Shown: positions 44,051-54,949 of the stretch, piece after piece
Layout of the letters: each line of letters opens with the position of its first letter
How positions within the stretch are numbered: the stretch's first letter is position 1
NCBI GenBank assembly: GCA_002840305.1
Contig: PHAI01000003.1
Span: forward strand, 70,908-134,907
Origin: Candidatus Falkowbacteria bacterium HGW-Falkowbacteria-1
Lineage (GTDB): Bacteria > Patescibacteriota > Patescibacteriia > Patescibacteriales > UBA12465
DNA length: 64,000 nt
Reading direction: 5' to 3'
The notes under the pieces: generated by a model
What the model was told of the DNA's origin: nothing
Database searches by the model: none
What the model saw: the letters and a program-made list of their open reading frames with translations, nothing else
Translations under genes and position numbers: made by a program

Positions 44051-45250
44051 TCACTTATTTTTTTCGTAATTAAACTGCCAAACATCAACAAACGGTGAAA
44101 CCAAAGAATTAATGTTAGATATAATAACTGATTCATCATTACCATAAAAACCATTGCCACTCCAATTGTTAGTGCCAAAAACAACAACTTGATCATCAAT
44201 TATTAATAAATGATGATGCAAAAAAGAGTTTAAATTGTTTACATTAAAATTATTTTTAATCTCTTCATTGCGATTGGTATCCGTAACGATCTCCAAATCA
44301 TTTAAATTATGTTTAATTTTCTCAGATAAAAGAAAATTAAAAGCAGATTCTGGCGAGTTATAATTAAAATCATCAGCAATAATTCTGACTTGTTTTTTTT
44401 GAGCAGCGGCCGCGATTTCAATTGCTAAGTCATTACTCGTGAAATTCCACATCATTAGCTTAATGTTGCTGTTCGACTCTCTAATTAGGTCAATCATACG
44501 CTCCTTGAGCCCTCTTTTTACCGGCTGGGGCCCAAACCAAATTTCCAAAAAACCTTCTGGATATTCAATTAGAGCCGCAAATGGATTAGAATTTAAGACT
44601 AATTTTTTTAAACTATGGTGACCATTCGCTATCTTTTTAAACTCCTCCCCAAAAATCATTATAATTTCTGGCCGAGTGGTCTCCAATAAAAAACATGGGT
44701 CATATTTTTCTTGAATGTAAGTAAAATTATATGACCCAAAAAATAATTTAGCCCCAGAATATCCTTGATCAATAAGTAGGAACTTATGATGCATCGAACC
44801 ATCATCCGATGGAATGTCTAAGCGTTTGATATTGGTGGGCAAGTCTTTAAAAATTTGATCATGTTCGATTTGTCTTTTGTCACTAAAAACCAGATTAACG
44901 ACCACACCTCTTTCTGTAGCCCTGTAAAGAGCGTCTCTAATATTGGTATTATTCATAGAATATACGGCCAATTCAATAGTATTTTGAGCCTCATCTATAG
45001 CTGAAATAATAATATCAGAAAAAATAGTTGTTCCCATTTCATTATTAAAATAAAGTTGACCGGAAAAATTGTCTTCAATTTTTATGTACCTGTTTGGCTC
45101 CGGACTATAAGCGCTATCACTATAAAACATAAAACTAAAAACATTTACAGACAATGAGACGACTAAAGCTAACAATATTACCAATGTCAAAAAAACCAAT
45201 ATATATATTTTATTATTAGACTTCGCTTGAAAAATTCTCATCCATTTCAT
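44051..45250 (-). CDS. Membrane-anchored phospholipase D-family protein with two HKD-type domains
   Basis: 399 aa. N-terminal anchor IYILVFLTLVILLALVVSLSV. First motif HHKFLLID....GSYNFT (HxKx4D...GSxN). Second motif is degenerate, HHHLLIID....GTNNWS (K replaced by H). Its start overlaps the upstream gene by 35 nt. Confidence 0.75.
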   Translation of the reverse strand: MKWMRIFQAKSNNKIYILVFLTLVILLALVVSLSVNVFSFMFYSDSAYSPEPNRYIKIEDNFSGQLYFNNEMGTTIFSDIIISAIDEAQNTIELAVYSMNNTNIRDALYRATERGVVVNLVFSDKRQIEHDQIFKDLPTNIKRLDIPSDDGSMHHKFLLIDQGYSGAKLFFGSYNFTYIQEKYDPCFLLETTRPEIIMIFGEEFKKIANGHHSLKKLVLNSNPFAALIEYPEGFLEIWFGPQPVKRGLKERMIDLIRESNSNIKLMMWNFTSNDLAIEIAAAAQKKQVRIIADDFNYNSPESAFNFLLSEKIKHNLNDLEIVTDTNRNEEIKNNFNVNNLNSFLHHHLLIIDDQVVVFGTNNWSGNGFYGNDESVIISNINSLVSPFVDVWQFNYEKNK

Positions 45251-46934
45251 ATTTTTTTTGATAATTTAAATAATCATTATTATCTCTAGAGAAAATTATA
45301 ATCGTGGACCGAGGTAATTTATCATCTAAAATCTTCAAAATTTCTATAATTTCCTCGTATTTTAAATCTATCCAAGCGTTATCAATTATAATAAAACATG
45401 GTTCATTGACTAAACAATGCAAAGCGTAAAGAGAAAAGGCTGACAATTTACTAGACAGGGCCATTTTGGCGCTAGAGTTAAAATTATTATTATGACTAAC
45501 CAAGTTGGCAATTTTTTTGTTAATTTCCAGAATTTTCAAGGCTCTCTCGATTTGAGAAAAGTCAGTTGTTTCCTTGTCTTTACCCAATATAAATTCCATT
45601 AAGCTTTTTTCTGAAAAAAAATTAAAATCAAAATAACAAATTCCTTGTCCAAATTTTTGCCAAAAAGAATAATCTATACGATGATTATCTATTTTAACTT
45701 TTACAGCCTTGGGCGTGTAAGCTCCCAATCCAGCCAACAATTCAGCCAAAGCTGTTTTCCCGATCGCCCGACTACTGTAGAATAAATAACGACCACCTCT
45801 GGCAAGAGATATTTTAAAATGACTATAATAAACCCCTTCTTTAAAAAGTTTAAATTTACGACTAGTAAAGTTAACAGTTTGACCAAAAACCAAAGTTTTA
45901 TCTCGTCGCACAACTGAGCCATTTTTCAAAATTGTTAAAAACATCCCGAGGCGAGCGGGATATAAATAAAGTCCAACCCGCAAGCTTTCGTTTATGGCCC
46001 GCGAAAAATAAATTAACAAGAATATAAGCAAAAATCTTGTTTCTGGCGTAATTAATTTCAACCAAGAAAAGAAGCCTGTCGAAAAAAAATTTATAAAAAC
46101 TGACAATAAAAGTAAAACAGCAAATATCACTTTAGCGCCCATTTTCATCCATAAATCACGTCTTACTCGAAAAAATGAATCAAAATCTACAAGACGATCG
46201 AACTGATTTAAAACAGATTTTTCCTGATTAAAGCTTTTTAAAAAATGTTTTTCAGTTGTGTTAATGTCTATTTGTTTAATTATCTGAGAATAAAAAGTTA
46301 CCTCCTGAGAGATATACCTCCTGGACACGAAATAGGCCGATAACATTATAATAGCCGATAATATTAAATTAGCCGATAAAACCAGCGCCCAATTTAAGCC
46401 ACTCCAATAAGAAATAAAAACTGCTATCGTTACATAGATTATCCATCTCAAAGAGCCAAAAAAAGAGTTAGACACGCCCATGGAAGTCAGCGGCAATTGA
46501 TAGGATATTTTCGCAATTAAATCAGTCTTTTTTTTCAAATTCATTTTTACTAAAGCTTGGTCAAGATAAGCTTTAAACAATCTACGACGAATACCATTAC
46601 TTAGCCAAACGCCTAAAGTTTTTTCTTGACGAATAGAAAAATAAGAATTGATAAAAAACAAAATCAAAAAAATTATTAAAAACTGCCAAAAAAATGGAGC
46701 TAACCACAATTTTTGTTGATTTGATATTTGATAACGACTGAAGACTATTAACAATGTTTCAATAACACCTTGGACAAATAATAGCACTATCAAAATTAGA
46801 ATAAACCAAAGATGTTGTTTAAAAAAATTTAAAAGATATTTGTAGTGCCAATCACTCAATTTTAATTGTTGATATTTACTACGAATAAATTTTACTTTTC
46901 TAATTAATCCGAATTGTCTCTTAATCTCGTTCAT
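45216..46934 (-). CDS. ABC-exporter-like protein (6-TM domain plus a degenerate nucleotide-binding domain)
   Basis: 572 aa. TM domain spans roughly residues 40-310. NBD has Walker A SSRAIGKT (Lys kept), signature LSSKL instead of LSGGQ, Walker B CFIIID followed by N instead of the catalytic E, SRD in place of the H-loop, and no Q-loop Gln. Its start overlaps the RT stop by 14 nt. Confidence 0.7.
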   Translation of the reverse strand: MNEIKRQFGLIRKVKFIRSKYQQLKLSDWHYKYLLNFFKQHLWFILILIVLLFVQGVIETLLIVFSRYQISNQQKLWLAPFFWQFLIIFLILFFINSYFSIRQEKTLGVWLSNGIRRRLFKAYLDQALVKMNLKKKTDLIAKISYQLPLTSMGVSNSFFGSLRWIIYVTIAVFISYWSGLNWALVLSANLILSAIIMLSAYFVSRRYISQEVTFYSQIIKQIDINTTEKHFLKSFNQEKSVLNQFDRLVDFDSFFRVRRDLWMKMGAKVIFAVLLLLSVFINFFSTGFFSWLKLITPETRFLLIFLLIYFSRAINESLRVGLYLYPARLGMFLTILKNGSVVRRDKTLVFGQTVNFTSRKFKLFKEGVYYSHFKISLARGGRYLFYSSRAIGKTALAELLAGLGAYTPKAVKVKIDNHRIDYSFWQKFGQGICYFDFNFFSEKSLMEFILGKDKETTDFSQIERALKILEINKKIANLVSHNNNFNSSAKMALSSKLSAFSLYALHCLVNEPCFIIIDNAWIDLKYEEIIEILKILDDKLPRSTIIIFSRDNNDYLNYQKKYEMDENFSSEV

Positions 46935-48126
46935 AATGAAATTTCTTGTAATAATTATAAAGCGATTTTATCCCCAATTCCCTAGTTCTTTCTTCGAGAA
47001 GCCGGCGATTACGAGGAGAATAACGTTGATAAAAAAATTTAGTTAAAATTCGCCAAAAACTTTCTGACAATTTTTTAATTTGTTCTGAATTGTTAACCAA
47101 TGGCTTGTCCTTTATAATTCTTTGAAATTTAAAATTATAATTATTTTTTGGCTCTAACATTATTTTTTTTAATAATTGATCTTTTTTGTTATTTGATGAA
47201 TTTTTATATGTTAAAATTTCTTTCCAGCCTAACTCTGTTTTCTTAACAAATGACTCCTCTAAACTAATCAGTCCATTATTAAAATTATACCCCAAAAAGG
47301 AAAAACTAGCGCGAGCTGGACCAATATACAACTTTTGCTCATTAATTGCTAGTTTTTTTACTAATAACTCAATTTTTAAATTACCCATAATTTCGCCTAA
47401 CTTCTCTTTTTTCTTATCAAAAAAAGCAATGTCATCACCAACGCGAATATAAAAAGGTACTATATTTTGATATTTAAAATCTAAATCACTTAAATATAGA
47501 TTGGCGAACATAGCAATAAGCGGGACTCCCTGAACCAAGCCCTTGCTCGGTGTCTCTATAGCTCCTTGACGATAAACTTTATTAAAAATAAATAAGTTTA
47601 AAACATCCAAAACGTCTTGATCAAAAAAAATACCCTTAAGTTGAGTAAACAATATTGATTTATCAATTAAATCAGAGTAATTCTCTAAATCTAAAATCAG
47701 GGCATAATCACTTAAAAAAGAGCGACGATACCGTCGACCAAAATTTTTAGCAGCTAAATAGGGCGATTTACCTGGACGATAAGAAAAAAGTCGGTCAGAA
47801 AGCCGCTTTTCAATTTCAGGTGAGAGGATTTGAAAAATGGCCTGAGCCTTAATTCTCTCTTTAAGATTATATATAAAAATTTCACGAAATTTTTTTGGAT
47901 TACTTTTTTTAGGTATTTTAATCGACAGAGCAGGACTAATTTCTATTTTCTGGACCAGCTCCTTTTGGGCTATGTTAATCAATTTCTGTGGATCTAAGTC
48001 ATAATCTTTTAACAAAAGATTATCTAGCCCATGGTATTTAAAATTTTTTCGATCGGCTGCAAATTGATCAATGATTTTTAGATAGGCTAATTTAAAATTA
48101 GCGTCACTGATTATTTTCTCAAACAT
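46921..48126 (-). CDS. Stand-alone reverse transcriptase (group-II-intron-like/retron-like RT domain, no maturase or endonuclease domain)
   Basis: 401 aa. RT motifs: (1) IPKKSNPKKFREI; (2a) FSYRPGKS; (3) ILDLENYSDLI; (4) LVQGVPLIAMFANLYL; (5) YIRVGDDIAFF, with the catalytic DD encoded at 47431-47436; (7) FSFLGYNF. Helical C-terminal tail of about 120 aa. Confidence 0.85.
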   Translation of the reverse strand: MFEKIISDANFKLAYLKIIDQFAADRKNFKYHGLDNLLLKDYDLDPQKLINIAQKELVQKIEISPALSIKIPKKSNPKKFREIFIYNLKERIKAQAIFQILSPEIEKRLSDRLFSYRPGKSPYLAAKNFGRRYRRSFLSDYALILDLENYSDLIDKSILFTQLKGIFFDQDVLDVLNLFIFNKVYRQGAIETPSKGLVQGVPLIAMFANLYLSDLDFKYQNIVPFYIRVGDDIAFFDKKKEKLGEIMGNLKIELLVKKLAINEQKLYIGPARASFSFLGYNFNNGLISLEESFVKKTELGWKEILTYKNSSNNKKDQLLKKIMLEPKNNYNFKFQRIIKDKPLVNNSEQIKKLSESFWRILTKFFYQRYSPRNRRLLEERTRELGIKSLYNYYKKFHYERD

Positions 48127-48269
48127 ATTTAAAAAATTATCCCCAAGATATTTAGTAGAGCTCCACTAAATATTGATTAAATCCAACGAGGCACCTGAGT
48201 GCTCTATATTATTTAACTTTGATCACCCGATATTAACGGGAAAAAAGAAAAAAGACAAATAATTGTTAA
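48127..48269 (-). promoter_or_regulatory. Hairpin-rich leader upstream of the RT gene; candidate promoter and/or RT-associated ncRNA
   Basis: Three local hairpins: 48148-48173 (9-bp stem ATATTTAGT/ACTAAATAT), 48188-48204 and 48226-48240. A GGGGA Shine-Dalgarno-like element precedes the ATG. Function not established. Confidence 0.3.
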
Positions 48270-48293
48270 TATCCCAAAAGGGTTTTGAGGATA
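48270..48293 (-). terminator. Possible terminator hairpin after the pilin-like gene
   Basis: Minus strand TATCC-T-CAAAA-CCC-TTTTG-GGATA, a 10-bp stem with one bulge, followed by a T-rich tract. Confidence 0.4.
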
Positions 48294-48309
48294 ATTCATT
48301 TAAAATAAC

Positions 48310-49341
48310 TTAAAAACAAGAAATCATATTAGCGTTGGAAGCTTCAGTGTCATAACGACAATTAGCACTAACGCTATTTAAAAAATGGTCGCTCTGGAGT
48401 TCATTGGTAGCTGATCCTTCTAGACGGTATTTTATGCGAAAATAATCATTGCCGTCATCATCAAAATTATTTACTATAAACATTTTATAAGGATACCAGC
48501 CCGTAGTCCACGTACCAATTGGCAAATAATTATTTAATGGCATATTTCTTAAATAAACCGTACCACTGTCACAAGCGGTCCCGGCCGACACGCTAGAGTC
48601 ATTAATATCTGCCGATAACTTAATGCACCAATTGCTTTGAGTCGGACATGGCGTGCTCGATCCATAAGTGCCTTGAATATATGCATGTTCTCCTTGTCTG
48701 ACTGGTTCGCTGGTTACCGTTGAACAATTGGTAGACCGTGTGTCACTACCAACCAAAGAATTTCCATTATAATAAAAAATATTATACGAAACTCCTGGGT
48801 CAACAAGATAATAACCGTTAGCGTCGTACATTGTTTTCATAGCGGCCTCAATAGCCGAAATATCCGCCAATCTTTGGCTGTTACGTAATTGAAGTGGACT
48901 AGCACATAAATCCTTACTGTTTATTTCTTGACTCAACTCTGCCAAAGGAGAATAAACTGCCGGTCGATTATAGATGGTTTTACAAATCATATAACCAGTA
49001 CCATTCTCTGAATTAACCTTAGGATCTGTTGGTATAGATGACAGATAAATAGTTTCATCGGTTAAGACTGATAAGTCGGCCAGACCGGTACAATCAATAG
49101 CGTCGGTACGACAAATTTCCAGCGGCATTGTATCTATTGCGGCTGGTAACTCTCCATTGTCTATAAGATATTGATAGGCGGCTTTTTGAAGAGTATTAAC
49201 ATCTGCATAACGTCGGGAATTTCTAGTTTGAGCTAGTTGACGAGCAGGATTAATAGCTAAAATTACAATACTGGCCAAAATAACAAGCAGCGCAACGGCC
49301 AACAAGATCTCTATTAACGTGAAAGCCTTTTTATTAAACAT
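48310..49341 (-). CDS. Type IV pilin-like protein with a large Cys-containing C-terminal domain
   Basis: Class III signal and N-terminal helix MFNKKA/FTLIEILLAVALLVILASIVILAI. The start is moved to M15 of the track ORF. Confidence 0.75.
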   Translation of the reverse strand: MFNKKAFTLIEILLAVALLVILASIVILAINPARQLAQTRNSRRYADVNTLQKAAYQYLIDNGELPAAIDTMPLEICRTDAIDCTGLADLSVLTDETIYLSSIPTDPKVNSENGTGYMICKTIYNRPAVYSPLAELSQEINSKDLCASPLQLRNSQRLADISAIEAAMKTMYDANGYYLVDPGVSYNIFYYNGNSLVGSDTRSTNCSTVTSEPVRQGEHAYIQGTYGSSTPCPTQSNWCIKLSADINDSSVSAGTACDSGTVYLRNMPLNNYLPIGTWTTGWYPYKMFIVNNFDDDGNDYFRIKYRLEGSATNELQSDHFLNSVSANCRYDTEASNANMISCF

Positions 49342-49433
49342 ATTTTGGATTTGAAAATTCAAAAAATAAGAATTAAACTCCAATGGCGAAATTTTGTATC
49401 TTTACTGTATCACTTTATCACCCTTTATTCAAA

Positions 49434-50159
49434 TCAAACTCTGAGCAAGCACTCCTTGACGGCCCTAGAACCAATTTTAACCATTTCTTTCATCTCGCTA
49501 TCAGTAAGCGGATCTAAGTTCTTGAAATTATTATTGACCAAGTCAATGTCCGACTTAAATTTTTGCAAATACCAAAGATTGGCCCCCATAATATCTTTTG
49601 ACATTTTCAAAATGTCTTCTTTGTCCAAAAGACCAGGAACAACAGTAGTTCTAAATTCATAGGGCAAGCTTCCTTCTATTAATATTTTAACACTCTTTTT
49701 TATTTTTTCTATGTTAGTCTTAACATTGACCACCTTCTCATAACTATCAAATGGGGCCTTTAAGTCCATAGCTATATAATCCAACAAACCGCTCGTAATC
49801 AAGTCCAAAACTTTATCTGGGTTTGTTCCGTTTGTATCTAATTTTATCTTATATCCAAGATTCTTAACTTTAATAATAAAATCCTTGAGATCACCCTGCA
49901 AAGTCGGTTCTCCCCCAGAAATAACTATACCGTCAAGCTTTCCAATTCTATCCTTTAAAAAAAGAAAAAAGTCCTCCTCCGGGATCAGAGAAGAACTTTC
50001 ATCTTTTATATTCATCAATTCGCTTTCGCCAGAGGCGAAAACTAGCATGGGATTATAACAAAAATGACAACGGAAATTACAAGATTTAGTAAAAATAACA
50101 GCCGATAAATACCCAGGAAAATCAATCAAGCTAAGTTTTTCTATTCCACCAATAGTCAT
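49434..50159 (-). CDS. nrdG: Anaerobic ribonucleoside-triphosphate reductase activating protein (radical SAM)
   Basis: 241 aa. CNFRCHFCYN (CxxxCxxC) and GGEPTLQ motifs. Located downstream of nrdD. Confidence 0.9.
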   Translation of the reverse strand: MTIGGIEKLSLIDFPGYLSAVIFTKSCNFRCHFCYNPMLVFASGESELMNIKDESSSLIPEEDFFLFLKDRIGKLDGIVISGGEPTLQGDLKDFIIKVKNLGYKIKLDTNGTNPDKVLDLITSGLLDYIAMDLKAPFDSYEKVVNVKTNIEKIKKSVKILIEGSLPYEFRTTVVPGLLDKEDILKMSKDIMGANLWYLQKFKSDIDLVNNNFKNLDPLTDSEMKEMVKIGSRAVKECLLRV

Positions 50160-50259
50160 TTTTAAAATACATAATTACTTTGAGTTTTTTTATGGTTATT
50201 CTCAAAAAACAAATGACCAAAAAAATAAAAAACAATAATTATCTCAAATTAATAATAAA

Positions 50260-50445
50260 CTAACGACTACAAGAATCAATTTTTTCCGAACTAAGCTTAT
50301 AAGTTTTTCGATCGCGATATTCAGCAATCTTCCCGTTGTTATAATTTACGGTAGGCGTTAACCAACCAACAACTCGGCTATAGACGATGCATTCCGTTCT
50401 CTTGTTTGTTTCTATTGGACTCATATTCTTTACAATTGGAAACAT
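50260..50445 (-). CDS. nrdD: Detached C-terminal glycyl-radical segment of NrdD (separate 61-aa ORF)
   Basis: ECIVYSRVVGWLTPTVNYNNGKIAEYRDRKTY matches the conserved NrdD C-terminus: the R-V-x-G-[YW] glycyl-radical loop, then N.GK..E...R. The first 17 codons are insert-derived. Confidence 0.7.
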   Translation of the reverse strand: MFPIVKNMSPIETNKRTECIVYSRVVGWLTPTVNYNNGKIAEYRDRKTYKLSSEKIDSCSR

Positions 50446-50524
50446 TTAATGTTAAAAACATTTAAATATAACCTATATAAAATTAATAAATAAACAAATT
50501 TTAATCTAATTTTAATCTAACAAT
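50395..50524 (-). other. 130-nt AT-rich intervening sequence splitting nrdD, flanked by a 7-nt direct repeat GAATGCA
   Basis: GAATGCA (minus sense) occurs at 50531-50525 and at 50394-50388. Both copies read GAA TGC A in the local reading frame. Deleting one copy plus the insert (137 nt) fuses ...QHSEEC to IVYSRVVGW... in frame. Confidence 0.65.
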
Positions 50525-52592
50525 TGCATTCTTCGGAGTGCTGAACGTTTTGTTGATCCTGATTGTAAATAAAAACTCCCTGATTTTTCTCTTCGTCACA
50601 TTTTGGGCAATATTTATGCTCGCCAGATAGATAACCATGAATAGGGCAAACTGAAAATGTTGGAGTAATGGTAAAATATGGTAATTTGTAATTTTCAACT
50701 ATTTTTTTGACCAATCTTTTTGTAAGATTTATATCATTAATTCTTTCTCCTAAAAATCCATGCAAAACTGTTCCACCGGTGTATTTAGTTTGAAGCTCGT
50801 CTTGCAAATCTAAAGCAGTAAAGATGTCGTCAGTAAAACCAACTGGCAAATGGGTAGAGTTTGTATAATATGGATCAGCGCCTTTCTCTACTACGGATTG
50901 ATTATTGGCACATAAAATATCAGGGTACGTTTCTTTGTCCTTTTTGGCGAAACGATAAGTACATCCTTCTGCTGGAGTAGCCTCCAAATTATATAAATTC
51001 CCTGACTCTTCTTGATAGTCAGCTATTGTCTCTCTCATAAAATTCATGATTTCTATAGCGAATTTATGACCCTGTACGCTAGTTATGTCGGATCCGAAAA
51101 GATTCAAAACAGCTTCATTCATGCCATTGATACCAATCGTATTAAAATGGTTTTGCCAATAAGAGCCAAATCTATTATTTATTTCTTCTAAATAATATTT
51201 AGAGTAGGGGTATAGCCCATCATCAGTAAACTTTTCAATAACTTTTCTCTTTATTTCCAAGCTATCTTTGGCCAAGTTCATTAGTTTTAGGAGTCTACCT
51301 TTAAAATCTTTTTCGTCTTTGGCAAGATAGCCTAATCTGGCCAAATTGATAGTTACTACTCCCAAACTACCCGTTAAAGGATTGGCCCCGAACAAACCTC
51401 CGCCCCTCTTTCTGAGCTCGCGATTGTCTAGCCTCAAACGGCAACACATACTTCTGGCATCATCCCTATCCATGTCAGAGTTAACAAAATTAGAAAAATA
51501 AGGTATACCATACTTTGAGGTCATTTCCCACATTGGTTTTAAACATTCTCGATCCCAATCAAAATTTTTATCTATATTATAAGTAGGAATAGGAAAGGCA
51601 AAAACTCTGCCGGAGGCATCTCCTTTGATCATTACTTCGGCAAAAGCCTTGTTGAACAAATCCATCTCTGTTTGAAAATCAGCATATTTTTCTTCCATTA
51701 ATTTTCCACCAATTATAACATTTTCTTCTCCAGCCAATTTAGAAGGAGTCACGTCCATAGTAACGTTTGTAAAAGGTGTTTGAAAGCCAACACGAGTTGG
51801 AACATTAACGTTAAAAACAAATTCTTGTAACGCTTGTTTTATTTCCTTGTAAGACAGGTCGTCATATCTAATAAATGGTGCTAAGTAAGTATCAAAATTA
51901 GCAAAAGCTTGAGCTCCAGCTGCTTCACCTTGCATGGTGTAAAAGAAATTAACAATTTGACCCAAGGCGCTTCTAAAATGTTTTGGGGCTTTACTCTGTA
52001 TTTTAGTGCTAACGCCGCCAAAACCTTTCAACAATAGGTCCTTGAGGTCCCAACCACAACAATAGGGAGCCAATAAGCCAAGATCGTGAATATGAAAATC
52101 AGCATCAACGTGAGCCTTTCTGATTGCCTCTGGATAAAGCTTGTTTAACCAATATTTTGCAGATATAGAAGAGGCTATGTAGTTATTCAAACCCTGCACC
52201 GAAAAACTCATGTTACTATTTTCTTTTAATCTCCAATCAGCTCGTCCTAAATAGTCCTCCATCAATTTTTCTTCGTTGCTATTATTTATTTCTCTAACTT
52301 GTCTCCTCTGATCACGATATAAAATGTAAGCCTTAGCAGTTTTAATTAATTTTTCTTCTATCAAAGTTTCCTCAACCAAATCTTGAACTTCTTCCACTGC
52401 CGGAATCGTATTGTGATGAAATTTTTTGGCTATTTTCTCTATTGCTTTGTCACCAACTTTTCCAGCTAGTTCTAAATTCTCTTCTCCGGCAGCCTCCATG
52501 GCTTTAGAAATAGCTAAAACCACTTTATCTTTTTTAAAATCCACAATCTCACCAGAACGTTTACGAATTTGGCTTATACTTTGATTAGACAT
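50517..52592 (-). CDS. nrdD: Anaerobic ribonucleoside-triphosphate reductase (class III), large fragment lacking the glycyl-radical tail
   Basis: 691 aa. N-terminal ATP-cone (IRKRSGEIVDFKKDKV), the catalytic barrel and a C-terminal zinc site CPIHG....CPKC. It ends 2 codons after the repeat. Confidence 0.9.
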   Translation of the reverse strand: MSNQSISQIRKRSGEIVDFKKDKVVLAISKAMEAAGEENLELAGKVGDKAIEKIAKKFHHNTIPAVEEVQDLVEETLIEEKLIKTAKAYILYRDQRRQVREINNSNEEKLMEDYLGRADWRLKENSNMSFSVQGLNNYIASSISAKYWLNKLYPEAIRKAHVDADFHIHDLGLLAPYCCGWDLKDLLLKGFGGVSTKIQSKAPKHFRSALGQIVNFFYTMQGEAAGAQAFANFDTYLAPFIRYDDLSYKEIKQALQEFVFNVNVPTRVGFQTPFTNVTMDVTPSKLAGEENVIIGGKLMEEKYADFQTEMDLFNKAFAEVMIKGDASGRVFAFPIPTYNIDKNFDWDRECLKPMWEMTSKYGIPYFSNFVNSDMDRDDARSMCCRLRLDNRELRKRGGGLFGANPLTGSLGVVTINLARLGYLAKDEKDFKGRLLKLMNLAKDSLEIKRKVIEKFTDDGLYPYSKYYLEEINNRFGSYWQNHFNTIGINGMNEAVLNLFGSDITSVQGHKFAIEIMNFMRETIADYQEESGNLYNLEATPAEGCTYRFAKKDKETYPDILCANNQSVVEKGADPYYTNSTHLPVGFTDDIFTALDLQDELQTKYTGGTVLHGFLGERINDINLTKRLVKKIVENYKLPYFTITPTFSVCPIHGYLSGEHKYCPKCDEEKNQGVFIYNQDQQNVQHSEECNC

Positions 52593-52726
52593 AAATTTAA
52601 TTTTTTATTAAAACTTTAGATTTTGAGCGAAATCTGAGGAAAAGACGAGAAGCGACATGAAGTGTATTTTAATACACTGAATAAGCCTAGCAGTCTTTGA
52701 CAAAAAAGTTTGCCAAAATATAAAGT

Positions 52727-53191
52727 TTATTTACTTTTTTTATTTTTTAACAACTTATCCAATTCTTCGCTGAATTCCTCTAATCCTTCAAATGATTGAT
52801 AAACCGAGGCATATCTAATATAAGCAACTTTGTCTGTTTTTTTTAAATTTTTCATTACAATTTCTCCGACCTCTATAGAACTTACTTCGTTTCTATTTAA
52901 AATTTGTAAGTCTCTTTCTATACAATAAATTAGTTTCTTAAACTTTTCTTCATCAAACCCTCTTTTTTCGAGAGCTTTTCTGAGGCCAGAAACGATCTTT
53001 TCTCTGTCATAATTCTCTCTACGATCATCTCTTTTTACAATAACAAGATCCAGAATCTCCATTTCCTCATGAGTGGAAAACCTGAACTCACACTTAAGAC
53101 ATTCCCGCCTTCTTCTAATCAAAAAACCGTCTCCCGAGACCCTAGAATCAATAACTTTTGTATCCTCAAAATGGCAAACTGGACATTTCAT
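52727..53191 (-). CDS. nrdR: Transcriptional repressor NrdR
   Basis: 154 aa. Zinc ribbon MKCPVC....V.DSR......RRRR.C..C..RF.T.E followed by an ATP-cone. Confidence 0.95.
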   Translation of the reverse strand: MKCPVCHFEDTKVIDSRVSGDGFLIRRRRECLKCEFRFSTHEEMEILDLVIVKRDDRRENYDREKIVSGLRKALEKRGFDEEKFKKLIYCIERDLQILNRNEVSSIEVGEIVMKNLKKTDKVAYIRYASVYQSFEGLEEFSEELDKLLKNKKSK

Positions 53192-53204
53192 GATTTTCTT
53201 ATAA

Positions 53205-53220
53205 ACACTAGATATAGTAT
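53205..53220. promoter_or_regulatory. Candidate NrdR box 1
   Basis: ACACTAGATATAGTAT matches the consensus acaCwAtATaTwGtgt at 14 of 16 positions. It lies 14 nt upstream of the nrdR ATG. Confidence 0.55.
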
Positions 53221-53237
53221 ATTAAAATATATTATCA

Positions 53238-53253
53238 CCACTATATCTTGTTG
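53238..53253. promoter_or_regulatory. Candidate NrdR box 2
   Basis: CCACTATATCTTGTTG matches at about 12 of 16 positions. It starts 33 bp from box 1, near the usual tandem spacing of about three helical turns. Confidence 0.4.
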
Positions 53254-53455
53254 ATTTTGATTATAGCAAAAAAAGAATGATACGGCAAACAAAGCAAAAA
53301 TTAGCTAAAATTAAACAAATTGTTGTTAGCAAAACAGAAGTTTTTAAAGAATCTATGGATAAGCTGTGGATAACTCAAAAGCAAAGCCAAAAAAACACTG
53401 CTATGTAAATTCTTAATAAAAAAACAAACGCCTTAAACCAGTTAGACGAGGAACA

Positions 53456-54949
53456 TTAGTCTTTTATGCAGCGAACCGAGCGACCGCCAGCACGATAAGC
53501 ATAATTGATATAAGCATTCGAAGGACAATATAAAAGATAGGCGTATTTATTATACACAGTGGAACTCCAAACATAACCCGCAACACCAACCTCATAAAAG
53601 CTGCCATTACTGAAAGTACGGCTGCCGGCTGCCGGCCATTTAAGAACAGAAGCCATGGCCCCTGACGGATTGTTGGAAGCCCAGCTCAACCTTTCAATAT
53701 CGAGTTCGTTTGATGTTGGAACTCGCCAGCCATCCGGACAGGGATTGTTTATCCCACTTACCCCTTGCCACAAACTATTTTTTTGAGGAACCCGCCAATC
53801 CTCGTTGTTTACATTAATGACTGCCTTTATAAAATTATTATGCCCTGGAGAATCAACAGAAGACGGGGTTGTCGTGGTCACACTAGTTCTTAACTGATGG
53901 CCATCAGCTCCTCTCCCCCATTGAAACAAATCACCATAACAGACAGGATCATTATAAGCCGCACAAACCTGAGATGCTCCTAAATTTCGATCAAGCCAGC
54001 ACTTAATATTTCCTCCCCCATAATCTTTTTCAACCGTTCCATAAGTTACTACGCCGCCATTGTAATCAAAAGTAACATTGTTTCCACAAACAAAAACTTC
54101 TTCTTCCCAAAGAGCATAAACAGTTAAGTCCCCGGCTATACTATAAATAGTATTCGACACATAATTATCGCCACTACCGTCAGATTCAGTGTCCCAACCT
54201 TGAAACACATAGCCATTCCTTGTTGGGATAGGTAATTCTTCAACCTCCTGATTATACACAACTAATTTAGAACTCGGGCTAACTCCTCCTCCCTGGGCAT
54301 TAAAGCTTAATGTATATGTATTAGCAATAAACTGAGCCGTAACATTTGTGTTTTCTTGAACATTGCTATCCATTCTAAATGCCGCAACCATTCCATCAGA
54401 CCACTGAAAAAATGAATAGCCTAAATTGGCCTGTGCCTCCACAGGGCTTCCATCTTCTCCTCTATTAACTGTTTGATTTATATTGCCCATGATGATACCG
54501 CCGACATCAGCTGTGTAATTCAAAAAAAATACGTCCACCACTCCACCATCTGTTTCCCCAGAAACAGCCACGACTCCTCCTGGGGTTACTCTTTTCGCCC
54601 CCTCTGGCATATCTGATATTTGTTTGCCGGTACAGAAATCTATAGTATAACTAGCTCCACTATTTTGAGGTATATAAGAATAAGTATTAGAAGCCTCTAG
54701 ACAATCGCCATCGGCAGGAGATGGAGCGGTAGGAATGTTGTACATAAATATTTCTCCGGTAGTAGAAGAGGTGATAGAGCCGCTGTTCCATTCATCTGTG
54801 GTAGGGTATCTACCGTTTTCATTAAAGAATAGTTCTAGAGTAGCCAGTATGCCTATGATAGCTATTACTACTAGAAGCTCTATTAGAGTGAAGCCACGTA
54901 AAAACGCTTCGCGTTCACGTGGCAAGGCTTTTTGTTTTGTTTTGAACAT
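53456..54949 (-). CDS. Type IV pilin-like protein fused to a Listeria-Bacteroides repeat and a FISUMP (Fibrobacter paralogous) domain
   Basis: 497 aa. GFTLIELLVVIAIIGILA pilin N-terminus. YTLSFNAQGG......NGYVFQGWDT....G repeat. C-terminal W..RNLG.....G.LFQWGR ... GYVWSST ... GRSVRCIKD. Confidence 0.75.
   Translation of the reverse strand: MFKTKQKALPREREAFLRGFTLIELLVVIAIIGILATLELFFNENGRYPTTDEWNSGSITSSTTGEIFMYNIPTAPSPADGDCLEASNTYSYIPQNSGASYTIDFCTGKQISDMPEGAKRVTPGGVVAVSGETDGGVVDVFFLNYTADVGGIIMGNINQTVNRGEDGSPVEAQANLGYSFFQWSDGMVAAFRMDSNVQENTNVTAQFIANTYTLSFNAQGGGVSPSSKLVVYNQEVEELPIPTRNGYVFQGWDTESDGSGDNYVSNTIYSIAGDLTVYALWEEEVFVCGNNVTFDYNGGVVTYGTVEKDYGGGNIKCWLDRNLGASQVCAAYNDPVCYGDLFQWGRGADGHQLRTSVTTTTPSSVDSPGHNNFIKAVINVNNEDWRVPQKNSLWQGVSGINNPCPDGWRVPTSNELDIERLSWASNNPSGAMASVLKWPAAGSRTFSNGSFYEVGVAGYVWSSTVYNKYAYLLYCPSNAYINYAYRAGGRSVRCIKD
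54893..54923. repeat. Family-B GC-rich palindrome embedded in-frame in the prepilin leader
   Basis: The minus-sense sequence is GCCACGT-GAACGC-GAA-GCGTT-TTT-ACGTGGC. It encodes ALPREREAFLRG immediately before the FTLIELL cleavage region. Confidence 0.7.

Follow-up and report, generated by a model that had tools for sequence, protein, structure and literature searches.

A conserved two-gene class III ribonucleotide reductase in Falkowbacteria and related bacteria, with a probable glycyl-radical subunit of about 54 residues

In solved structures of NrdD, the catalytic protein of class III ribonucleotide reductase (RNR), the last barrel strand is followed by a zinc ribbon and then by the loop bearing the radical glycine, and this loop dips into the barrel as far as the finger loop (PMC4493059). 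The glycine is buried and must leave the barrel for activation by NrdG (PMC4493059); in the P. copri enzyme the glycyl-radical domain is a mobile body able to disengage from the core (PMC11226230). Pyruvate formate-lyase (PFL), another enzyme with a glycyl radical, takes a separate glycyl-radical protein, GrcA or YfiD (PMC8683613, PMC13450708), which restores the enzyme after its cleavage by O2 (PMC8683613), and a review of June 2026 reports such spare-part proteins as known for formate lyases only, their existence for other glycyl-radical enzymes being undetermined (PMC13450708). Here we describe a class III RNR locus in a stretch of 64,000 nucleotides (64 kb, hereafter the window) from Candidatus Falkowbacteria bacterium HGW-Falkowbacteria-1 (assembly GCA_002840305.1, contig PHAI01000003.1, positions 70,908 to 134,907 of the forward strand), in which the glycine loop is encoded apart from the rest of NrdD, probably as a radical-bearing subunit that acts in trans. 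Positions are those of the whole window, and all nrd genes treated here lie on its minus strand (Table 1).

The large gene of the locus, nrdD-large, matches the Pfam family NRDD (PF13597) at 615.9 bits (cut-off 26.2), the Pfam ATP-cone at 66.3 bits, NCBIfam NF006126 at 1041 bits (cut-off 548, positions 3–663 of 684) and TIGR02487 at 516.7 bits (cut-off 326). Its product holds an ATP-cone, the alpha/beta barrel, the finger-loop region (SMCCRLRLD...GGGLFGA) and a zinc ribbon (CPIHG-x11-CPKC, residues 649–665) with a predicted metal-binding role. The glycyl-radical loop (RxxG[YFW]) is not part of it: beyond the ribbon the chain continues for 26 residues (CPIHG..CPKC-DEEKNQGVFIYNQDQQNVQHSEECNC) and stops. 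A first-pass annotation made from the letters of the window had seen this 691-residue protein end after its zinc site with no loop, and both the open reading frame (ORF) and the Pfam coverage, positions 1–531 of 562, agree. The loop, as SRVVGW, was found on a separate ORF of 54 codons, which matches NRDD at positions 530–562 of 562 only and NF006126 at C-terminal positions 649–683 only. The same annotation had given this ORF 61 residues; it was right that the longer, mechanical ORF (50445..50260, from an upstream ATG) lies 71 nt 3' of nrdD-large in another frame, but the conserved gene begins at the second ATG, at 50424, and encodes 54 residues (MSPIETNKRTEC...). The predicted radical glycine, Gly20, aligns with the RxxG[YFW] motif at the end of the NRDD profile and is invariant in both alignments of small proteins (A1, A2). 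The product of nrdG matches TIGR02495 (NrdG2) at 198.5 bits (cut-off 131) and Pfam Radical_SAM at 82 bits, and that of nrdR matches Zn_ribbon_NrdR at 68.4 bits and the ATP-cone at 68 bits; nrdR has the same place in the cluster in L001–L003, L086 and L087.

Among known systems, the canonical single-chain NrdDh enzyme of the T. maritima type, with its activase NrdG, is one of the closest. Subclasses of NrdDh are defined by SCCR or MCCR together with a hydrophobic residue in the finger-loop motif, which is Phe in h4, and a His zinc ligand is typical of NrdDh, the T. maritima site being CxxxHx6CxxC (PMC4493059). With SMCCRLRLD at residue 381 and GGGLFGA downstream, the window's enzyme belongs, by motifs alone, to group NrdDh4 (MCCR). 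It shares with canonical NrdDh the ATP-cone, the barrel, the MCCR finger-loop region, the Phe-containing GGGLFG loop, the His-containing zinc ribbon and the RVVG[WY] motif followed by an NxGKxxExxDR tail, as well as an adjacent nrdG and nrdR upstream. It differs in that the chain is interrupted immediately behind the zinc ribbon, with the Gly loop and the tail on a separate protein of about 45–60 residues, and in that the large subunit gains an extension of D-E-E-x-G-Y type that is missing in nearly all contiguous relatives. A catalytic RNR chain in two adjacent genes with the C-terminal module on the second is also seen in the class II enzyme NrdJa/NrdJb of the Pseudomonas aeruginosa type (cited in PMC9669993). 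That enzyme is of another class with a B12 cofactor, and NrdJb carries a zinc finger and redox cysteines rather than the radical site; in the window's enzyme the large chain keeps the zinc ribbon, and it is the small chain that bears the radical residue.

The division of nrdD is conserved among relatives. We compared 80 loci from distinct species representatives that encode kin of the large ORF (63–88% identity), mostly Patescibacteria (Falkowbacteria and Parcubacteria) together with two Halanaerobiales. All 80 are split at the same place and none has an uninterrupted gene; throughout, the zinc-ribbon motif is present, the large ORF stops 10–42 residues past CPxC, and the Gly-loop segment sits on a separate short ORF. 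The arrangement around the cut varies widely. Stops of the large ORF are TAA, TAG or TGA at non-homologous positions, the two ORFs are offset by 0, 1 or 2 frames, and the gap from stop to ATG spans 18–249 nt; in two more distant genomes, L087 and L086, the genes abut directly or are 4 nt apart. In the Halanaerobiales (L078, L080) nrdD-large is followed by nrdG (231 aa), and the small gene lies about 800 nt downstream with its own Shine-Dalgarno (SD) sequence; the order (nrdR)–large–small–nrdG was seen in three contexts looked up among homologues of the small protein. The first-pass annotation had held that relatives split without any repeat, with an independently conserved small ORF, would speak for two genes rather than an insertion, and this is the picture that the 80 loci give. 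Our confidence that the locus is a conserved two-gene class III RNR architecture is very high.

Some records among these relatives have peculiarities of their own. The large subunit at L086:1553-4996 has 1147 residues and a faint LAGLIDADG_3 Pfam match in the middle of its NRDD domain, and an intein may thus have entered an RNR gene that is itself split. Many records of metagenome-assembled genomes with the Patescibacteria-type nrd cluster (L005, L007, L009 and others) are titled "uncultured Gammaproteobacteria bacterium", a label that looks unreliable.

The small gene carries translation signals of its own. An ATG is located 13–14 codons before YSRVVG in nearly all 80 loci (8–23 codons upstream in a few distant ones), and conservation of the small protein starts exactly there, with M-[SA]-P-x-x-T-x-R-Q-E-C. 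This ATG is preceded by a clear SD of the GGAGG type in L027, L078, L079, L080 and L082, while in L087 and L086 the final codons of the large ORF contain the SD and its stop is abutted by the ATG (AAAGGAGGGAATTAAATG), which is the classic layout for translational coupling. The first-pass annotation had correctly recorded that no SD precedes the small ORF in the window; since none precedes nrdR, nrdD or nrdG of the same genome either, its lack is uninformative. Compared with L004 and L005, the core of the small gene has a proportion of nonsynonymous differences (pN) of 0.049 and of synonymous differences (pS) of 0.57–0.71, and the mean pN/pS over 3003 pairs is 0.25, so the gene is under strong purifying selection. 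The fixed ATG, the SD sites, the Halanaerobiales gene order and this selection together favour independent translation of the small ORF over bypassing, frameshifting or splicing.

Contiguous relatives, which occur in other Patescibacteria, Riflebacteria, Planctomycetes, Endomicrobia and Bacillota, join CPxC to YSR through a linker of 6–15 residues (e.g., CPKC-TIKQPCEV-YSRVVGY). Split large subunits have instead a D-E-E-x-G-[YF] motif right after CPxC, followed by a variable tail; the strict pattern D-x-E-x-G-[YFLWI] stands at the start of the extension in 61 of 78 loci, and its counterpart in the window is DEEKNQ (50580–50597). Among 108 contiguous relatives that were parsed, three (P0301, P0350 and P0382) have the start of such an extension. 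A further contiguous fragment, P0316, lies outside the parsed set, its zinc motif having been missed by the pattern; it reads …CPKCDEESGY-15 aa-RTHCEIYSR… and looks like an unsplit intermediate or a re-fusion. Both split chains often have cysteines near their ends: two Cys fall within the last eight residues of the large-subunit extension in 28 of 78 loci (…SEECNC in the window, elsewhere …ERCSTC, …NPTCC or …GCVEC, each followed by the stop), the overall frequency of Cys in the extensions being 4.8%, and at least one falls within the last eight residues of the small subunit in 44 of 78 (…VEDSCC, …KVACSE). These ends recall the C-terminal redox Cys pairs of class I and II RNRs. The idea that the small-subunit Cys of R-x-E-C might complete the zinc site across the chains was dropped, because contiguous relatives share this Cys (…QPCEVYSR) and the His-containing zinc site is a feature of the subclass.

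The two chains are divided exactly at the boundary of zinc ribbon and Gly loop, and for this reason we propose the protein of about 54 residues as the radical-bearing subunit. Solved structures gave no meaningful match to the junction region alone, and full-length or profile queries found distant NrdDs only (P. copri, T. maritima and T4). We consider it probable, from comparative sequence data, that the class III RNR encoded here is split by nature, its large subunit being catalytic and a glycyl-radical subunit of about 54 residues acting in trans. The cluster nrdR–nrdD-large–small gene–nrdG would then specify a two-chain enzyme in which the segment after the zinc ribbon, i.e. the radical-Gly loop and C-terminal tail, is made from its own start codon as a separate protein. 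The small subunit, whether free or docked, would lose a hydrogen from its Gly20 to NrdG; the Gly loop would enter the large-subunit barrel non-covalently, beside the finger loop; and the small subunit would store the radical as the covalent glycyl-radical domain of canonical NrdD does, with catalysis proceeding as in the single-chain enzyme. The D-E-E-x-G-Y extension may, speculatively, hold or guide the small subunit. A two-piece enzyme with a trans-acting glycyl-radical peptide was one of several options raised in the first-pass annotation, and it is the one to which the comparative data point. Several considerations weigh on the other side. The match of the small ORF in the window to Pfam NRDD, at 25.3 bits, is just below the gathering score of 26.2, with homologous small proteins reaching 38–48 bits; and the gene follows a 92-nt spacer and has no SD, although its neighbours have none either. 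The gene architecture, its conservation, the translation signals, the selection and the alternative gene orders are observed, whereas assembly of the complex, activation of a 6-kDa peptide by NrdG and catalysis are inferred.

Proteins of this kind are widespread. A profile of the small protein, searched against 1.84 billion cluster representatives, retrieved 4573 proteins at E ≤ 1e-3, of which 1031 reach E ≤ 1e-10; the 150 best have 44–115 residues throughout, and nearly all of them begin with Met and have no upstream zinc motif. In a second search at 90% clustering, 7982 of 8000 candidates scored were matches, the best 120 all having 44–72 residues. Their database names are automatic and inconsistent ("hypothetical protein", "ribonucleoside-triphosphate reductase"), one protein of 46 residues being named "RNR class III large subunit". 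Against PF13597, matches of the small protein in the window and of eight homologues are confined to positions ~510–562, and none matches the PFL-type Gly_radical family PF01228 at E ≤ 0.01.

Two variant forms were noted in the same family. P0056, P0159, L131 and L164 are stand-alone proteins of about 100–115 residues with a zinc-ribbon-like CxxC…CxxC part N-terminal to the Gly loop, L131 and L164 being on viral contigs; by its motifs this type would be an entire glycyl-radical domain made separately, so that NrdD would be cut in a second way. In P0026 and P0085 the Gly-loop segment appears twice in tandem (e.g., …EVYSRVVGYLSPVSHWNEGKKEEW repeated), which could be an internal duplication or an assembly error.

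The small-protein profile also gave more than 522 matches on IMG/VR viral contigs, and the following counts refer to the best 80 of these loci. In 72 the peptide comes as a short ORF and not at the end of a long NrdD ORF; one of the 72 (L127) in fact belongs to the end of a contiguous NrdD, and another (L101) has the window's split arrangement with nrdG. Contiguous NrdD was found in three of the 80, and in about 70 tblastn detected neither NrdD-large nor NrdG within ±3.5 kb. One conserved phage family has the leader …NGDLxLDNGTxIPAEKR…, and in 19 of 20 of its loci flanks of up to ±10 kb contain neither large subunit nor activase. One orphan peptide (L147:3303-3644), for which PHROG families gave no match, lies amid phage genes for an anti-repressor, a replication initiator, NinG, an HNH endonuclease and an endolysin. 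The phage orphans are in keeping with a module able to act in trans and suggest, short of proof, an exchangeable role similar to that of GrcA; they may be phage-encoded spare radical subunits for a host NrdD.

These orphans, which have no large subunit nearby and show that the peptide can exist independently, are also an argument for the strongest competing explanation, that the small protein is a spare part or regulator like GrcA and not an obligate partner, the large protein being inactive or having another role and deoxyribonucleoside triphosphates (dNTPs) coming from another RNR or from salvage. The frequent host dependence of Patescibacteria fits with this. Against it, the large ORF is conserved over its full length (63–88% identity; 1041 bits to NF006126) with its catalytic motifs and ATP-cone kept, and the small gene and nrdG always accompany it, often together with nrdR; moreover, a Gly loop is indispensable to all glycyl-radical enzymes but absent from the large ORF, and the adjacent conserved small gene is the obvious supplier. 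We therefore regard a dispensable small protein as improbable. The nearest functional analogues are GrcA/YfiD of E. coli and Y06I of phage T4. They are likewise small separate Gly-loop proteins, and activation by the cognate radical-SAM activase and action in trans within a large barrel subunit would be common to both. GrcA (IPR011140), however, is homologous to the C-terminus of PFL (PF01228), whereas the proteins described here are homologous only to that of NrdD (PF13597, positions 530–562); GrcA has about 14 kDa as opposed to about 6 kDa; and GrcA backs up a full-length PFL with a loop of its own, whereas the large subunit here is loop-less, which would make the small protein obligate.

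Going a step beyond the split enzyme, the small protein might be an exchangeable and consumable "radical cartridge", charged by NrdG off the enzyme, plugged in, and replaced after O2 cleavage at the glycine, with the phage orphan copies serving the host enzyme. This extension is tentative and we think it rather doubtful; if it were true, oxygen damage would cost a 6-kDa peptide and not an 80-kDa enzyme, and the phage copies would sustain dNTP supply during infection. It would then also be the first spare-part or autonomous glycyl-radical protein for a glycyl-radical enzyme apart from PFL, and would give class III an equivalent of the separate radical subunit that class I RNR has. The likeness to class I alpha/beta is one of analogy only, in that a stable radical resides on a subunit apart from the catalytic barrel: beta is a ferritin-like metalloprotein working by long-range radical transfer, whereas here a 6-kDa loop peptide would enter the barrel directly.

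Our search of open-access literature turned up no account of a class III RNR, or of NrdD, in split form or of a small NrdD subunit; RNR database curators may well have come across such truncated sequences. The protein would be the first small separate radical-carrying protein for a glycyl-radical enzyme other than PFL, and such proteins make the spare-part question directly testable for class III RNR. NrdD-type proteins of about 50 residues are abundant (thousands of clusters), some as probable obligate partners of a loop-less NrdD and others as phage orphans. By parting the activase's substrate from the 80-kDa barrel, a two-piece enzyme would offer a minimal native system for NrdG access, loop docking and O2 repair. 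For annotation, large subunits of this kind are easily called truncated or pseudogenes, and metabolic reconstructions of Patescibacteria could mistakenly score their only RNR as broken.

Much less probable is that the two ORFs are joined into one polypeptide by recoding, whether by ribosomal bypassing like that of phage T4 gene 60, by frameshifting or by removal of a small intervening RNA. The first-pass annotation had raised RNA-level removal and bypassing from the matched GAA-TGC codons at possible take-off and landing sites, with a stop two codons past take-off, and to that extent there is a superficial likeness to gene 60, namely matched codons around a non-coding gap and a nearby stop. 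The relatives do not keep the matched codons, however, and the spacers range from directly abutting genes to 249 nt in all three frame offsets; there is no conserved take-off and landing pair, stem-loop or fixed gap as in gene 60, and instead an independent start codon is conserved exactly at the start of the conserved peptide, with an SD where the lineage uses SDs. When the insert and its repeats were folded, the sequence had no more structure than shuffled sequence (z = 0.15), and an Rfam scan of 49300–53400 at E ≤ 10, group I and II introns included, returned three sub-threshold chance matches, none within the spacer. Neither an intron nor a hop nor an insertion is compatible with the complete nrdG that separates the pieces in Halanaerobiales. 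A self-splicing group I or II intron, as in phage T4, was also rejected as a candidate: the 92-nt spacer has no Rfam match and is too short, AT-rich and unstructured.

A mobile insertion, MITE-like (miniature inverted-repeat transposable element) or other, that inactivated nrdD with a 7-nt target-site duplication and left a recent pseudogene is more improbable still. It had been proposed from the heptamer GAATGCA, whose two copies, 137 nt apart, do lie in phase at both junctions as the first-pass annotation reported, and from the single frame that is regained when one copy and the 130 nt between the two are removed. The repeat is no more frequent than chance, since 31% of composition-matched shuffles of the two junction regions in the window give one in-phase 7-mer or more. 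In-phase GAATGCA is confined to the window's own species (L001–L003); it was not found in the nearest other species (L004–L010, 82–88% identity), and about 13 other loci have some unrelated in-phase match of at least 7 nt at varying positions. We judge it a chance-level red herring. Removing the 137 nt does yield one frame, but the resulting C-terminus is not canonical: the linker from CPxC to YSR would have 26 residues instead of the 6–15 of contiguous relatives. The ends of the stretch between the heptamers have no terminal inverted repeats, and a search of the 64 kb for further copies of the spacer (3 mismatches; blastn-short) found only itself and short AT-rich matches. The insertion or pseudogene explanation thus fails because the "insert" is missing from none of the 80 relatives, the repeat belongs to one species and does not exceed chance, the spacer has no further copies in the window, and the split is ancient and conserved, with the small ORF under strong purifying selection; a MITE was rejected on the same absence of inverted repeats, further copies and empty sites. 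An assembly or population artefact, i.e. a chimeric or erroneous contig, likewise suggested in the first-pass annotation, has nothing in its favour beyond being an a priori possibility in metagenome assemblies and is the least probable explanation of all, excluded by an identical 691-residue large ORF on six contigs from independent samples and different assemblers (ENA, Logan), with the 61-residue ORF in the same arrangement at all three of those inspected, and by the same architecture in 80 other species.

Table 1 Features of the split class III RNR locus and its surroundings in the window.
Feature	Position	Strand	Basis or remark
nrdR, transcriptional repressor of RNR genes, 154 aa	52727..53191	-	First in cluster
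nrdD-large, class III RNR catalytic subunit, 691 aa, TAG stop	50517..52592	-	Pfam/NCBIfam
Zinc-ribbon motif CPIHGYLSGEHKYCPKC, Cys-His-Cys-Cys	50598..50648	-	Translation
C-terminal extension of nrdD-large, DEEKNQGVFIYNQDQQNVQHSEECNC	50520..50597	-	Specific to split forms, variable sequence
Heptamer GAATGCA copy 1, codons E-C-N of large-subunit extension	50525..50531	-	Judged chance
TAG stop codon of nrdD-large	50517..50519	-	Translation
Intergenic spacer, 92 nt, AT-rich	50425..50516	-	Between nrdD-large stop and small-gene ATG
Small gene, probable glycyl-radical subunit, 54 aa + stop, MSPIETNKRTECIVYSRVVGWLTPTVNYNNGKIAEYRDRKTYKLSSEKIDSCSR	50260..50424	-	Pfam, NCBIfam, conservation
Heptamer GAATGCA copy 2, codons E-C-I of small subunit	50388..50394	-	Judged chance
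Codon for Gly20 (predicted radical glycine) of the 54-aa protein, within SRVVGW	50365..50367	-	Translation
nrdG, radical-SAM activase, 241 aa	49434..50159	-	Directly downstream of small gene

The spacer between the two genes has a nucleotide identity of 55–67% to relatives, compared with 70–80% for the small gene. A promoter and terminator scan of the spacer found nothing, its counts being the same as in shuffles. The window also has a perfect 11-nt tandem duplication (TAGATTAAAAT twice, minus strand, 50497–50518) that starts at the TAG stop of nrdD-large, apparently a small local slippage event and no conserved feature.

Downstream of the nrd cluster, the region 44051–48126 of the minus strand encodes a reverse transcriptase (RT) of 401 residues (PADLOC RT 117 bits, RT_UG26 103 bits), an overlapping protein of 572 residues without a family match, and a protein of 399 residues with a DrmC/PLD-like match of 60.7 bits; by these matches the group is a candidate defence-associated RT system. 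A diversity-generating retroelement beside the nrd cluster is probably not present, as there are no direct (template/variable) repeats of at least 40 nt in 45500–49500. Immediately around the cluster, the regions 48310–49383 and 53456–54949 of the minus strand encode large proteins with type IV pilin-like N-termini (FTLIE…), one of which, of 357 residues, matches Pfam N_methyl at 23.3 bits, a type of flank that is typical of Patescibacteria.

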